Shown here: positions 5,991-17,537 of the stretch, piece after piece
Position numbering within the stretch: the first letter of the stretch is position 1
Layout of the letters: every line of letters begins with the position of its first letter
Source: an uncultured Chloroflexia bacterium
GTDB taxonomy: Bacteria > Chloroflexota > Limnocylindria > Limnocylindrales > CSP1-4
Length of the DNA stretch: 64,000 nucleotides
Direction of reading: 5' to 3'
Assembly: GCA_963720755.1 (NCBI GenBank)
Contig: CAVRGP010000006.1
Span: 1 to 64,000, forward strand
Made by a program: the position numbers and the translations under genes
The notes under the pieces: generated by a model
Told to the model about the DNA's origin: nothing
Database searches by the model: none
The model's input: the letters and a program-made list of their open reading frames with translations, nothing else

Positions 5991-6729
5991 AGGCTTCCGG
6001 GCGGAGATCTACGAGTGGCAGATCGCTGCGTTGCTGGCAACGGCCCAGGTCGACGAGGCGGCCAAGGCGCGGATCGTGGGCGCGCTTGGCGGCGAGCCGC
6101 CGGCGGTCGACGCGCGCAGGGTCACCCGCTTGGAGCAGGAACTCCGTGCCATCGCTCTCGACAACGCCTTCGGACGGATGACCGACGAGGTCTACCTCCG
6201 ACGTAAGTCCGAGCTGGCTGCTCAGATCGAAGCGGCGAGGCGGCCTGAGTCCGCCGCGCACTCCGTGGACCCGAAGCGAGCGCTCGGATATCTCGCCGAC
6301 CTACGCTCTCTTTGGGACGTGGAGCTGCCGGAATCGCCCGAGCACCAGGGCGTCCGCCACGAGTACGAGCGGCGAAGGGCGCAGGCCACGGCGGCCGGCT
6401 TCGAGCGGCTCGAGGTCTTGGGACCAGTGATCGTGGAGGCGAAGCTCGCTGATCCGATGGCCGGCGCCTCGCTGGCGATGTCGTTGCAGCCCGAAAGGGC
6501 CGAACTCGTGGGACAGCAGGCCGACGTCGTCCGCACGCTCCTCGATGGCCGTCACTCGCGTCTGGCCCACACCGACACAGCGGAGGCGCGCAAGAAACGA
6601 CGCCAGAGAACAGAGACCAGGACATTAAGGTGCTTTGGTCGGGGCGAGAGGAGTCAGGCCGACACGTCACGAGTGAAGGTTTGGATCGTATCCGAGCGCT
6701 GCCGGCCGGGCGTGCGCCGTTCTGCGTGA
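5990..6729 (+). pseudogene. C-terminal remnant of a large serine recombinase (older element)
   Basis: Coiled coil RLEQEL...FGRMTDEVYLRRKSEL; LADLRSLW and FERLEVLG align with VQDLPETW and FDRIDVLG in the 16076-17537 recombinase; no catalytic N-terminus. Confidence 0.7.
6636..6652. repeat. att core (displaced 3' end of tRNA-Pro)
   Basis: TGGTCGGGGCGAGAGGA identical to 17516-17532. Confidence 0.92.
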
Positions 6730-6804
6730 AGCGAGCCGATTGAATGCACTTTTCGGGAACCGCCCCGATCCTTCTTCCAGGCGGATTGTTCAGCGGCCGG
6801 GCGA

Positions 6805-7518
6805 TCACCGTCGATCAGCCACGAGTCCCAAGTTCTCTAGCCGCGCCAGTCGCCATCGATTGAGCTGGCCTAGCGCCAGAGCTCGATCGTCGCGCAAGTT
6901 CGCGATCATCCGCCGGGCGCGCTCCTGCAGGACATTCATTTCATCCTGCGAGATCTCGGTTTCACCCGGCCAGCCGCGCCCTTTGGCGTTGAGCAGTATC
7001 TCGAGGAGGTCGATCGCGCTCTCGTCTTCGTCGTTCAGGATCCGCGCATATGCTGCCTGCTCAGTCCCTACGGGGTCCGATTCAAGCTCGTGCGGATCCG
7101 CCAGGAGTTCATCCGCGAACGACCCGAGTGCCGCACGACGCCGAAGGATCGGGACGCCTTCCTCAATGACGTATTTCACAAATCGATCGATCACCTGCTC
7201 GTCGTGGCGCCCGTCAAGGATCCACCGCCGGTCGCCGAAAAGCCGCATGATCCCATCGCGTTCCATGCCAACGGCCTGGAAGCCCGGGTAGTCGGTCGGG
7301 GCAAAGAGTGGCGACGCGACGTAGCTGGCCCAAAACTCGCGGTCGTCGACGGCCACCAGATGGATTCCGACCAGGACATCCTCTATCGGATACCGATAGA
7401 CGAGCACGCTTGGCTGTTTATGCCAGTCGAACGGCGATGGACTGATCAAACGAAACCCGACCAGCCGAGGCAGCAGGGCTTCACGTGCTATTCGCTCAAG
7501 TCGAAGGGCGGAGTTCAT
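6805..7518 (-). CDS. Hypothetical protein, putative RHS immunity protein
   Basis: 237-aa ORF co-oriented and 150 bp downstream of the RHS stop; visibly lower GC than the RHS core. Confidence 0.6.
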   Translation of the reverse strand: MNSALRLERIAREALLPRLVGFRLISPSPFDWHKQPSVLVYRYPIEDVLVGIHLVAVDDREFWASYVASPLFAPTDYPGFQAVGMERDGIMRLFGDRRWILDGRHDEQVIDRFVKYVIEEGVPILRRRAALGSFADELLADPHELESDPVGTEQAAYARILNDEDESAIDLLEILLNAKGRGWPGETEISQDEMNVLQERARRMIANLRDDRALALGQLNRWRLARLENLGLVADRR

Positions 7519-7667
7519 GGGCGAGGGCCTAATCGCCTGACTTCTCGCCTATTGCTCGATGCGACATTTTGGGTTGAACTGATGGTCATGCGTCGTAAAT
7601 CGAGGGCGTGTGTCATCCCCTGCTCGCAGCGGCCCTCGGTCGCTACTTCGAGCGAGCGACTGATTGC

Positions 7668-14565: not shown

Positions 14566-15601
14566 ATGACCAACGACCATGCGTTCAGCAGCACCACTCC
14601 CTTCGAACCGACTCGCCCTCGACCGGGCTGATTCGGCCTGGCCGATGGGCGGTCCGCCCTGAGAGCGGCCCGACGCCTCGGCATCCGCTCGAGCCCCGGG
14701 ATCGCGGCCTGGACGGCGCTGCCCGAGCGTGACCGGAGCCTCCTGCTCTGGCTCGTCGGTGGCGACGTCGTAACGGCCGAGCTCGCGGCACTCCTCGCCT
14801 ACGGCCACCGGCGCATCGCCCAGCGACGATTGGCCCGGCTGGTCGAATACGGCTTGCTGACGGGCTTCTGGGCGGCCAACCGCCAACGGCCGCGCGGACG
14901 CTACGCGTATGCGCTGACCCGGGCGACCAGGCTCGCCCTCGAGCGATCGATCTGGCCGGAGGGCCAGAAGAAGCTCTTCAACAATGCCCCCGAGGGTGTC
15001 TCGCCGGTCATCCACGGCCTGGCCAGCCATGATGTCCTCGCGGCGTTCCTCCGGGCCAGCGACGGGGCGAGCGGTGTCGGGCTCGCCGCCTGGGTGTCCG
15101 AGCGACCGCTCATCCGGATGACCTGGCACGCGGGCCTGCGGCCCGACGCCCTCGCCGTCATCCGGGTCGGCGAACGCTCGATCCTCCTCGCCATCGAGCG
15201 CGACCTCGGGACCGAGCGCGGACCGATCCTCGCCGGCAAGGTCGACTCGTATCAGCGCATCTACGACGTTCGCCGGTATACGGCACCGCTCCACGTCGGC
15301 TTCGTCGTCAATTCCGCCCGGCGGGCTGCCTCGGTCCGATCGCGCCTGCGCGGCACGGACAAGGACGACTCGGTCGTGACGACCTGGGTGGTGACCGAGC
15401 CCGCCCTCGCGACCGACCCCTATGGCGCCATCTGGACGACACCGGGTGGGACCGACGCCCGCGTCGTCGACTTCGAGCCCGCACTGGACCGGCGATCCCT
15501 GGCCGTATTTGGCGCCTGGCGACCTCGCCGATCCGACGACCCTCGAGGTCCTCGACGACCGGGTATATCGGCGGATCCCGATGCTGGCCGACGCGCTGTG
15601 A
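14566..15601 (+). CDS. Replication-relaxation (Replic_Relax-like) protein, interrupted (in-frame TGA near 14630, frameshift near 15480)
   Basis: LPERDRSLLLWL...VTAELAALL...RRIAQRRLARLVEYGLL wHTH start, HGLASHDV, and LRPDA...LAIERDLGTE PD-(D/E)xK-like motif. Confidence 0.7.
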
Positions 15602-15961
15602 GCGGGAAGGTCGCGCGCGTCCCGCAGCGCGTCCCTGGCGCGTCGCGCAGGACCAGCCGCGACCGGGTCGCGACCGCGGGCCGACGACCGACGCGACACC
15701 CCGCCCGAGCGTGCCGAGCCCAGGGCGCCGAAGTGCGACATCACTACCGTGAATTCATCATCCAGCGCCCTCCAGTGACCATGCCTCGCCGACCTCCCCG
15801 TACCCAGCCGACGACAACCGAACGCTCGCGACGCAACCGCTAACAGTCGTCCACCGCAGACAGCCACCAGCGCTCGCCATCCTCGCGACCTCCGTCTCCA
15901 GATCGTCTACTCATCACCCCCAGTCATGGACCCGCACCCGCAGGTGCGAGACAATCCCCCG

Positions 15962-16078
15962 ATGGACCCCGTCGTCATCGCTCTCGCCCAACTCGTCCGG
16001 GATCGCTGGACCAACGAACAACCTGCCCGTACCGCTCGACGGTCCAGCCTCACGATCGTCCCGAGCGAACCAGCGATG
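15962..16078 (+). CDS. Short leader ORF preceding the recombinase (MDPVVIALAQLVRDRW...)
   Basis: Amphipathic ~38-aa stretch running in frame into the ATG at 16076. Confidence 0.35.
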
Positions 16079-17537
16079 AAGACGCCTGCCAGCCACGATC
16101 GAGGACCTCGCCGGTCGACGAGCTGCCCGCTGGATCCGCGAGAGCACCGCCGGCCAGTTCGACCGCTACGGTCCCGAGGCCCAGGCCGAGATGCAGGACC
16201 GCGCGATCGCCCGGCTCGGCCTGGTCGACTCCGGGCTCGCCTGGCGGGCCGCCCATTCCGGGCGGACGGTCTACCGCTCGGCGGAGATGGTCGACATGCT
16301 CGGCTCGGCCCAGCGTGGCGAGTTCGACGTCCTCCTCGTCGGCTACGTCTCGCGCTGGCAGCGCAACCTGCGCCGAACACTCGAGCTCCTCGAGGACACC
16401 CTCCATCCGGCCGGTGTCCCGGTCTACTTCTGCGACGAGGAGATCCTGTCGTCGTCCGAGCGCCACTGGGACCAGCTCGTCGATGAGGCCAAGGATGCCG
16501 AGCGCTACAGCCGCCGGCTGTCGCGCCGGATCAAGGAGGGCTATGCCTCCAAGCTGGCGAAGGAGCGCGACCCGGGCGGCCGCCCGCCGTTCGGCTTCCG
16601 GCGCAACGCGGCCAAGCTGCTCGAGCCCGACCCGATCGCCTCGCGACGGTCCGGCGCGTGTTCGAGCTCGCCGCGGCGGGCCTGCCCGACCGCGATGTCG
16701 CGGCGGCCGTCGAGCTGCCACTCTTCACCGTCCGCGGGATGCTGACCTCGCCGCTGTACGTCGGGCGACTGCGCGATGGCGAACCGGCCCGCTGGGCACC
16801 GCTCGTCCCGGGCGGCCGAATGGGAGGCCACCCAAGGCGACCCGCGCCAAGCGGGCGACGAATACCAGTCGGCCGGCCGATCCACGCCGACCCGTACGCG
16901 CTCGACATGCTCCATTGCGCCGCCTGCGGCAAACGGCTCACCGGCGACACCGGCTACTACCGCCACCGCGAGCCGTGCCCACCCTTCGTGGCCGCCCGAC
17001 CCGAGCACCGCGGTCGCGGCCGGACCCTTGGCCACGCCTACCGCCGTGAGCTGTACGAGCAGATCGTCGAGGAACTGCTCGCCGAGGCCTCCGTCGGTGC
17101 ATCGGCGATCGCCAGCGTGGTCGGCGAGGTGAACCGGGCGACATCAGCTCCCGATCGCCTGGCACCCGATCGGATCGCTCGCGAACGTGAGCGCGCGATG
17201 GCCCACTACCTCCGAGATCGGGACGCGTCGCGGCTCGAGCAGACCATGACTCGTCTCGACCAGGAACAGGCGGCGGCCGAGACTCGCGAGCGACCGGACG
17301 ACATCCCGGCCGATGTCGCGGTCCGCTTCGTCCAGGACCTGCCCGAGACCTGGCGGAAGGCCGAGGGCGGCTCGGGGCGCCAGCTCCTGGCGAGCGCCCT
17401 GTTCGACCGGATCGACGTGCTGGGGATCGCAGGAGGCGACCGTCCACCTCAGCGCGCATGCCGTCCGACACGGCCTTGCGGCAGCGCTCCCGGCTGAGAT
17501 GGGAATACTCGTAAGTGGTCGGGGCGAGAGGATTTGA
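16076..17537 (+). pseudogene. Large serine recombinase (integrase), about six single-base frameshifts as assembled
   Basis: RWIREST catalytic motif, FDVLLVGYVSRWQR, GGRPPFGFRR recombinase domain, CAACG zinc ribbon, coiled coil; pieces in ORFs 16191, 16658, 16776, 16315 and 17313; ends VSGRGERI* inside the tRNA. Confidence 0.85.

Follow-up and report, generated by a model that had tools for sequence, protein, structure and literature searches.

A probable integrative and mobilizable element, most likely dead, carrying an RHS toxin module at tRNA-Pro(CGG) of a Limnocylindria-type Chloroflexota genome

The stretch of DNA analyzed here (the window) consists of the first 64,000 nucleotides of contig CAVRGP010000006.1 from the draft genome of an uncultured Chloroflexia bacterium (GCA_963720755.1). 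Two copies of a 17-nt string in this window enclose a segment of 10.9 kb with five genes, which is probably an integrative and mobilizable element (IME) of a Limnocylindria-type soil bacterium (Chloroflexota) with a single RHS toxin module as its cargo; the copy at hand is most likely dead. By the criteria that were tested (position of the recombinase, attachment (att) repeats, a relaxase, and no VirB4), the element is an IME. An earlier reading of the bare sequence (hereafter the original prediction) had not recognized this combination of genes as a described element class. This view did not hold. A PF13814/MobC relaxase together with a serine integrase at the end, a size of about 10 kb, and no VirB4 constitute the architecture reported for IMEs (PMC5357655), and the relaxase belongs to a family that is described as well (PMC3424549), so that the seemingly novel combination is that of an IME.

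IMEs have a mean size of 10 kb and an outward-facing integrase at one end, and they often occur in tandem accretion with decayed elements (PMC5357655). The lack of VirB4 distinguishes them from integrative and conjugative elements (PMC5357655).

Attachment cores and gene content of the element

The core string at 6636-6652 recurs exactly at 17516-17532, and these were the only two exact copies in the whole 64 kb; a search tolerating three mismatches added a third site at 13789, with three mismatches. The element and its borders comprise the following features (window positions, strand, description).

5992-6635, plus strand: C-terminal stump (about 214 aa) of an older large serine recombinase, seen by translation; abuts the left core from outside
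6636-6652, no strand: distal att core, duplicate of the tRNA 3′ end, exact match to 17516-17532
6653-6804, no strand: inner element end, non-coding, with a candidate recombinase-binding arm
6805-7518, minus strand: orf237, an intact, cytoplasmic-looking orphan of 237 aa, 149 nt downstream of the RHS gene
7668-13179, minus strand: RHS polymorphic-toxin gene (Pfam, NCBIfam), interrupted by a surplus T in the TTT run 12896-12898; reading past it gives about 1836 codons
13193-14125, minus strand: p310, an intact protein of 310 aa, modeled with an N-terminal transmembrane (TM) helix and a half-barrel of the LprG/LppX/LolA kind; 13 nt separate it from the RHS start downstream
14126-14640, no strand: intergenic region from which the cargo operon and the relaxase gene diverge, the expected place of promoters and of an origin of transfer (oriT), although a consensus scan gave no promoter-like site above shuffle controls; holds ATG 14566 and TGA 14629
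14641-15601, plus strand: Replic_Relax (PF13814, MobC-type, PD-(D/E)XK) relaxase gene (Pfam E = 2.7e-11; tblastn), with a frameshift at ~15476-15480
16076-17537, plus strand: large serine recombinase gene, tRNA-proximal and outward-facing (Resolvase PF00239, E = 7e-8; catalytic-serine motif)
17516-17592, minus strand: tRNA-Pro(CGG) (ARAGORN; Rfam tRNA, 63.3 bits), whose 3′ 17 nt (17516-17532) are the proximal core

According to the placements by ARAGORN and Rfam, the right copy of the core represents the last 17 nt of the tRNA including its CCA end. All 17 nt were invariant at each of seven aligned junctions from the window and its relatives. Integration at a tRNA 3′ end, as originally proposed, was thereby upheld: the duplicated core is the 3′ end of tRNA-Pro(CGG), and the element is site-specific. 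Just inside the left core, the first ~25 nt from 6653 resemble the inner arm of a related element (L030) and are a candidate recombinase-binding arm.

The genes for orf237, the RHS protein, and p310 lie on the minus strand, the Replic_Relax and Resolvase frames on the plus strand. Both the exact repeats and the five sizeable genes named in the original prediction were recovered, but three of the genes are frameshifted. Pfam searches of eight open reading frames (ORFs) or ORF pieces inside the element and of the stump outside it gave no domain of a type IV secretion system (T4SS), coupling protein, phage, type VI secretion system (T6SS), or type VII secretion system (T7SS), in agreement with what had been stated before.

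The core string occurs twice more in the window's genome (G000), at 261240-261256 and 265334-265350 of contig C2, with one copy exact, the other carrying one mismatch, and 4.1 kb between them. No tRNA was found by ARAGORN in C2:255001-272000 around these copies, and the pair may be a displaced att-flanked relic.

A large serine recombinase reading toward the tRNA and the stump of an older one

The recombinase gene is the last gene before the tRNA and is transcribed toward it, but it is frameshifted in the window copy. Its start codon is ATG 16076. One extra base lies within the next four nt (16079-16082), owing to which the catalytic-serine motif (~16110-16140) is out of frame with the ATG; one base is missing near 16630, and another extra base is present near 17429. 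The intact recombinases of the related loci L028 and L030 were chosen as references, as that of L027 is itself out of frame in its tail. In tblastn, both aligned to the window in frames 3, 2, and 3, i.e. an uninterrupted frame fails in the window, with three frame changes relative to each reference. PF07508 (Recombinase) was matched in the intact L030 protein and weakly in L028; Pfam gave no such match for the window piece 16658-17497, and a CxxC stretch is discernible by eye in the C-terminal part. The intact L028 and L030 frames cross the att core. The corresponding frame of the window recombinase reaches a stop within the tRNA gene, 3 nt past the core.

The stump of another large serine recombinase, unnoticed in the original prediction, borders the left repeat on its outer side. 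Its residues 2-144 are 35% identical to the L073 recombinase, and its frame also reads through the left core copy, as in intact recombinases of the family. The last 205 bp of the stump (window 6434-6635) together with the core are 93% identical at the nucleotide level in G017 (L013 10059-10280), a different species of the same genus, where other islands separate the stump-like sequence from the tRNA. Since this conserved stretch follows the last core copy of G017, the stump and the left core are older than the present occupant. From these alignments, the stump is best seen as the remnant of an earlier element in a tandem accretion, into which other elements have since entered on the tRNA side.

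Broken recombinases were also seen elsewhere. The recombinase of the well-preserved L027 element (11028-12842) has a frame change of its own in the last ~75 codons, and decay of such recombinases may be common. Contig C8 of G000 has a second large serine recombinase (100449-101415, minus strand; ~60% amino acid identity to that of the element). It lies close to the contig end, its sequence is divided among three or more frames, and no Replic_Relax gene is nearby.

The Replic_Relax gene and its relatives

The relaxase frame matched PF13814 with 44.4 bits (gathering cut-off 25.3) over profile positions 33-182 of 191. This family belongs to the PD-(D/E)XK families (PMC3424549); its relaxases are assigned to the MobC superfamily and are classed as such by CONJscan (PMC5357655). 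The original prediction had placed a replication-relaxation protein in the ORF starting at ATG 14566. The similarity to Replic_Relax proved real and is shared with 394 homologues, all of those listed carrying PF13814, but the ORF from ATG 14566 ends after 21 codons at an in-frame TGA (14629-14631), and the frame that aligns to the homologues, from 14641 onward, has no ATG, GTG, or TTG before 14830. It thus lacks a canonical in-frame start upstream of its helix-turn-helix (HTH) domain. In addition, the frame shifts at ~15476-15480, and the conserved last 41 residues (stop 15599-15601) are read in another frame; tblastn with the intact relaxases of L027 and L028 divided the match over frames 1 and 2. 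Intact homologues have 293-318 aa, and the best is 94% identical. Four residues (D155, E172, D174, and K186) were invariant in 18 homologues and were read by eye in the window frame; by our own assignment, they are candidate residues of the PD-(D/E)XK site. A search for solved structures of relatives of the relaxase gave none.

The genomic context of the family was surveyed in 60 loci, with one genome per species. Nearly all of these loci come from records titled as Chloroflexia, Candidatus Limnocylindrales, or Limnocylindria metagenome-assembled genomes. Some related contigs are labeled as Actinomycetes or Alphaproteobacteria; cross-phylum spread was considered and set aside, since the tRNA in L033 is identical to that of the window and mis-binning is the simpler explanation. 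In eight loci (L027, L028, L030-L034, and L039), the relaxase gene is directly followed by a matching serine recombinase; for L027, L028, and L030, the N-terminal part of this recombinase shows 93% identity. The same 17-nt core bounds the elements of L027 (1135-1151 and 12847-12863, 11.7 kb) and L030 (5550-5566 and 12832-12848, 7.3 kb), while those of L031 and L033 end directly at tRNA-Pro(CGG). The relaxase family was also found paired with tyrosine integrases in L029 (11869-13000, beside tRNA-Pro(TGG)), L035 (7607-8644), and L070 (10625-11665), and with an rve transposase instead in L037 (11280-12542). Such pairings are typical of module shuffling.

Nine distant loci, with relaxases 44-55% identical, have an ORF of 730-790 aa directly upstream on the same strand (L049, L059, L065, L066, L071, L072, L074, L077, and L080). 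Pfam assigned a HerA/DUF87 ATPase to three of the five such ORFs that were scanned (L049, L065, and L074) and gave no match for those of L059 and L080. Further upstream, L049 and L074 encode a protein with TraG-P-loop/AAA_10 (VirB4-like); that of L049 matched the NCBIfam CD1110 VirB4-like family with E = 1.3e-53 and 182 bits, which is below the curated cut-off of 325. The nine loci are candidate conjugative elements of Chloroflexota and possible helpers. As the PF13814 family is used by elements with conjugation ATPases, the window protein is read as a mobilization relaxase.

The RHS module: toxin gene, p310, and orf237

The body of the RHS protein (7668-12857, 1729 aa) contains DUF6531 and RHS_repeat (Pfam, E = 7.3e-12) as well as YD repeats and the TIGR03696 Rhs_assc_core at residues 1478-1560 (NCBIfam). 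The Rhs core ends near 8180 and is followed by a hydrophobic linker and a variable C-terminal domain (7671-8177). A protein of ~1830 aa, as proposed originally, has the expected RHS domains but exists only if the frameshift at 12896-12898 is read through: because of the extra T in this run, the signal-peptide-like N-terminus (ATG 13179) is out of frame with the body. Homologues keep both parts in one frame (e.g. L098 and contigs of other metagenomes), and programmed frameshifting was rejected as relatives read the same stretch without a break. Seven other RHS proteins have the end of the Rhs core and the hydrophobic linker in common with the window's protein, and the linker between core and variable tip was seen only in these eight. 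The last ~75 aa are common to only two of the seven (P0131 and P0132); full-length relatives with the same C-terminus have 1827 and 1852 aa. By these comparisons, the C-terminus is modular, with a variable domain behind a conserved core. T6SS-linked RHS islands (PMC13474744), as far as that source describes them, have no bearing on this locus.

p310 had no Pfam match. Its structural model (pLDDT 89.7, pTM 0.79) was closest in Foldseek to LprG (3mh9_A, E = 3.1e-8, TM-scores 0.41/0.59), followed by LolA, LppX, and RseB; TM-scores were moderate and identities ranged from 8 to 18% across the matches listed, and an Atlas lead agreed with them. The family comprises 136 representatives and is found in 6 of 301 class genomes. 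All six contexts fetched (two further matches, one at a contig end and one partial, were left out) showed p310 linked to an RHS protein of the window type, either directly in front of it (L098-L102) or fused to it (L097). In the latter case, a p310-like LprG-fold domain and the RHS part form a single frame of 2803 aa (4262-12670; G197, contig C9), a fusion that supports a direct functional link between the two. No relaxase or recombinase was nearby in any of the six, which together with the consistent linkage suggests a self-contained module picked up by the IME. The claim that the RHS module is the only cargo of the element was thus confirmed. BLASTP between p310 and the 280-aa protein beside the ECF sigma factor of the left flank (4436-5278) was not significant (best E = 0.015).

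orf237 matched no Pfam or NCBIfam family and had nine homologues at 60-77% identity among 5.8 billion proteins. Within 401 class genomes it was found only once, in the window's own, and no relatives were found in the metagenome contigs. The G+C content falls to 0.61-0.62 over 6501-8000, the orf237 tail of the element. DUF4304, suggested by an Atlas cluster (19% of members), was dismissed for orf237, as none of the nine family members matched Pfam DUF4304 at E up to 1. Judging from its position behind the RHS gene, orf237 is likely an immunity protein, which its rarity fits.

From these parts, the following mode of action can be proposed. The backbone consists of the MobC-type relaxase and the outward large serine recombinase at the tRNA-proximal end. 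In intact copies, the recombinase would recombine the chromosomal tRNA with a duplicate of the last 17 nt of tRNA-Pro(CGG) carried by the element. Such integration would restore the tRNA and leave two copies of the core. Once the element is excised, its relaxase would nick at an oriT, and transfer would depend on the T4SS of a co-resident conjugative element, as the element has none itself. Its cargo is one Sec-type RHS module made up of a membrane-anchored accessory protein of the LprG/LolA fold, an RHS protein with swappable C-terminus, and a probable immunity orphan.

The insertion site as an accretion hotspot

tRNA-Pro(CGG) and the neighboring MFS gene are conserved in the genus. The sequence beyond the tRNA was fetched for 14 sites in 13 relatives; the loci L016 and L026 were of insufficient length, and the remaining 12 were scanned. 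Extra core copies downstream of the same tRNA occur in four of these (L013, L015, L020, and L022). G017 has three copies delimiting islands of 8.4 and 1.4 kb, G001 and G011 have two exact copies each, and G015 has one exact copy and two with one mismatch. The genes enclosed by these copies encode MarR, an ABC transporter, oxidoreductases, a methyltransferase, and an ECF sigma factor, but no recombinases; they look like att-flanked relics. In G005, a serine recombinase of 46% identity lies at the tRNA. None of the proteins of the window element was found in the 12 loci and, given the narrow distribution of p310 and orf237, its cargo genes are accessory rather than core. The tRNA-Pro(CGG) site is an accretion hotspot, in which the element stands in tandem with the older stump.

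The left flank of the window carries three further features.

56-1648, minus strand: phosphoesterase-family gene (PF04185)
2129-2521, minus strand: Fic/DOC-family protein
3888-5781, plus strand: ECF sigma factor and two small secreted or membrane proteins

This flank, which reaches the contig end, may itself be cargo of the older element, as a small att-flanked island of G001 also has an ECF sigma factor. In G000, the flank conserved among G020, G005, and G006 is located in the middle of contig C1.

Alternatively, the segment might be an ordinary chromosomal island; its repeat would stem from partial tRNA duplication or from chance, and recombinase and relaxase would be unrelated debris. By our estimate, a repeated 17-mer is not wildly improbable in a G+C-rich window of 64 kb. 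The repeat is, however, the exact 3′ end of the tRNA, the recombinase frame crosses it, the same core bounds related elements or arrays in at least six other genomes, and the cargo is missing from this site in relatives. We consider this explanation extremely improbable and close to refuted already.

Decay, assembly error, and other explanations

The element contains five single-base indels within 4.6 kb (three in the recombinase, one in the relaxase, and one in the RHS gene). Logan contigs of four metagenomes were placed on 6000-18000 to check them. X1, X3, and X5 come from three different studies and contain relatives that are 90-99% alike; runs X2 to X8 made up small shares of the sampled words, so that gaps in the cover of X2 or X3 carry no weight, and none of the lesions is covered by X2, the run that is nearly identical to the window. 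Relative to the window, (i) one base is left out at 12896 in all depth of X1, X3, and X5; (ii) one base is left out at 15475 in 14.7 of 28.1 of the depth in X1, 7.68 of 11.3 in X3, and 0 of 13 in X5; (iii) one base is left out at 16082 in 18.9 of 18.9 in X1; (iv) a T is put in at 16630 in 11.7 of 23.4 in X1, 0 of 6.28 in X3, and 0 of 26.5 in X5; and (v) one base is left out at 17429 in 16 of 16 in X1. X3 and X5 have no cover at the third and fifth site. According to these depths, uninterrupted versions of all five sites exist elsewhere. Part of the independent depth at 15475 and 16630 shows the state of the window, which favors real alleles.

To gauge the background, we counted coding-like ORFs of at least 120 codons whose first start codon is preceded by 35 or more coding-like codons. 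In the 3.0-Mb draft of G000, 22 of 1666 coding-like ORFs were flagged, including the recombinase of the element and that on contig C8. The heuristic is insensitive, having caught one of the three broken genes of the element; even allowing for this, five indels in 4.6 kb are a strong local excess.

The main rival to decay is assembly error: the same IME would be intact and active, and the five 1-nt indels would be consensus errors at a place where variants of the element co-occur. All lesions are indeed single-base indels, the RHS frame is otherwise open over 1769 codons, p310 and orf237 have full length relative to their homologues, and the related contigs of X1, X3, and X5 are uninterrupted at several of the sites. 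The split of the second recombinase on C8 could likewise reflect a systematic problem in assembling mobile DNA. On the other hand, the genome-wide signal of broken genes is low, none of the five sites lies in a long homopolymer, X1 pieces show no gaps or indels across the RHS body (8196-12342), and some contigs of independent runs carry the state of the window, as given above. The relaxase also lacks its start codon, which is not a matter of indels. Altogether, an intact and active element is rather unlikely, and decay is clearly likelier than assembly error. The window copy is thus probably a fossil, in which p310 and orf237 remain intact.

Several observations weigh against a decayed IME. 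The genome is a draft of 15 contigs, and the lesions were judged without its source reads and without cover by X2, so that assembly errors may account for some or all of the indels. Of the five lesions, that in the RHS gene is the least certain; as 1769 codons stay open behind it, it is either very recent or an error. An inverted-repeat scan for an oriT in 14126-14640 found nothing above background, with a single 8-nt inverted repeat in these 515 bp upstream of the relaxase gene and no known oriT of this family as a reference, and the relaxase function is predicted from family membership and the context of relatives. The left-flank proteins (the ECF sigma factor and the proteins of 280 and 159 aa) had no match in the relatives' 12 loci. 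No empty site with the window's left flank was found; this flank is not syntenic, and the contig ends 6.6 kb away. Finally, neither circle junctions nor empty-site junctions were reported among the metagenome contigs.

The negative oriT scan would also suit a small integrated replicon, in which the Replic_Relax protein would help to replicate or regulate the excised circle instead of nicking DNA for conjugation, and which would spread by other routes. The annotation of PF13814 covers plasmid replication as well as relaxation, and its members have been called predicted HTH-fused regulators or nucleases (PMC3424549). Neither an AAA_10 nor a VirB4-like query detected VirB4 in G000 (93.6% complete), i.e. 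the search for a helper T4SS was negative, and tblastn of an intact relaxase homologue against 72,556 plasmids found nothing. However, distant homologues of the relaxase lie directly behind coupling-protein-like and VirB4-like ATPases, CONJscan counts PF13814 relaxases as MobC (PMC5357655), and Pfam found no gene for a replication initiator, partition protein, or primase among the scanned ORFs of the element. A replicon of this kind therefore seems improbable, and the IME reading is retained.

Giant secreted proteins as recurrent cargo and wider significance

The cargo was surveyed in six related serine-recombinase elements for which 3.9 kb or more of sequence in front of the relaxase gene is available. 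The original prediction had suggested looking for the same backbone with other cargo, and the relaxase-recombinase pair carries different genes in these relatives. These comprise (i) a LamG/CBM/RHS protein of 2383 aa that ends in an Rhs core motif and a tail (L033); (ii) a LamG/CBM protein of 2488 aa or more, in which YD-like repeats are discernible by eye, together with a partner of 668 aa (L028); (iii) an RHS fragment at the contig edge (L034); (iv) an Ig-like/CBM96/fn3 protein of 2580 aa with a signal peptide (L027); (v) AbiEi and an HTH protein (L030); and (vi) an IS110 transposase with small ORFs (L032). For scale, the 3.0-Mb G000 draft has six frames of at least 1500 codons. That giant secreted proteins recur alongside this backbone is suggestive, although the loci are few and related.

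In the same array as the L027 element, past its right core, a further giant secreted protein of 2308 aa with a C-terminal subtilase domain (Peptidase_S8) is encoded at 13688-20611 on the minus strand.

The locus and its relatives represent a new IME family within a known class. A literature search yielded no publication that deals with RHS toxins, relaxases, or integrative elements of Limnocylindria. As a tentative generalization, which we hold to be possible though on balance doubtful, soil Limnocylindria may host compact IMEs that act as vehicles for a single giant Sec-exported weapon, hijack conjugative elements with the same relaxase family, pile up at one tRNA, and are kept after decay for their immunity genes. 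Their backbone would pair a MobC-type relaxase with a tRNA-Pro-targeting large serine recombinase whose frame crosses its own att core and ends in the target tRNA. The weapon would be either an RHS protein with an obligatory, previously unrecognized partner of the LprG/LolA fold or another protein exceeding 2300 aa.

Little has been described of the mobile elements of Chloroflexota, and the locus provides a concrete and easily recognized IME family. Its own importance is limited, as the window copy is probably a fossil. Three features merit following: the tRNA-targeting recombinase whose frame passes through its own att core, the RHS partner with the LprG fold, and the recurrent giant secreted cargo. 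The serine recombinase of this family uses a tRNA 3′ end in the manner of a tyrosine integrase and might find practical use as a site-specific integrase. The distant relaxase loci supply candidate conjugative helpers. Finally, the LprG/LolA-fold partner gives a lead on how Sec-type RHS toxins may be held or delivered in bacteria without T6SS or T7SS.

Comparison with known systems

The closest described case, compared by description, appears to be IME_Class_8 of streptococci, in which VirD4, a PF13814 relaxase, and a serine integrase form a compact module (PMC5357655). Both have a Rel_PF13814/MobC relaxase followed by an outward serine integrase at the end and lack VirB4; moreover, the window element is close to the mean IME size and shares the tandem accretion with decayed elements (PMC5357655). 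As far as the published description goes, the two differ in the VirD4 coupling protein, which is present in IME_Class_8 and absent from the window element (PMC5357655). The hosts differ as well, namely Bacillota for IME_Class_8 and Chloroflexota here. Streptococcal IMEs with serine integrases insert inside genes and thereby disrupt them (PMC5357655, PMC5704250), whereas the window family targets a tRNA 3′ end, restores the tRNA, and leaves 17 bp.

IMEs with antibacterial cargo are exemplified by GIE492 (microcin E492) and Tn6104 (lantibiotic) (PMC5704250). Like the window element, these are small mobilizable islands that bear an antibacterial weapon together with self-protection (PMC5704250). 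Their backbones are unrelated as far as tabulated (PMC5704250), and their cargo consists of small bacteriocin clusters instead of one giant Sec-type RHS protein of ~1836 aa with an accessory protein and an immunity candidate. Polymorphic toxins on mobile elements are represented by the contact-dependent inhibition (CDI) transposon of Burkholderia thailandensis (PMC6350997), SitA of myxobacteria (PMC5562445), and the phage-borne MuF toxins (PMC5576092). In each case, as these sources describe it, a mobile toxin-immunity pair penalizes neighbors without it, as an intact version of the window element might. The original prediction had proposed that the element could favor its own maintenance by killing such neighbors; in the window copy, the toxin, relaxase, and recombinase genes are all frameshifted. 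The vehicles (transposon, prophage-like element, and phage), the delivery (type V secretion and outer-membrane exchange), and the hosts are different.

WapA-type Sec-exported RHS/YD toxins of monoderms have a signal peptide, an Rhs core, a variable C-terminal toxin, and a downstream immunity gene. The window RHS protein resembles them in its N-terminal signal peptide, its RHS/YD shell and Rhs core with a variable tip, the candidate immunity gene downstream, and the lack of PAAR/VgrG or any T6SS/T7SS targeting. To our knowledge, WapA-type toxins have no obligatory upstream membrane protein of the LprG/LolA fold. By contrast, the RHS type of the window always has its p310 partner upstream, fused to the RHS protein in one genome. 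This partner is modeled as the same open half-barrel as the lipid or lipoprotein carriers LprG, LppX, and LolA (PDB 3mh9, 2byo, and 8cgm, among others), from which it differs in being anchored by a predicted TM helix rather than being a demonstrated lipoprotein.

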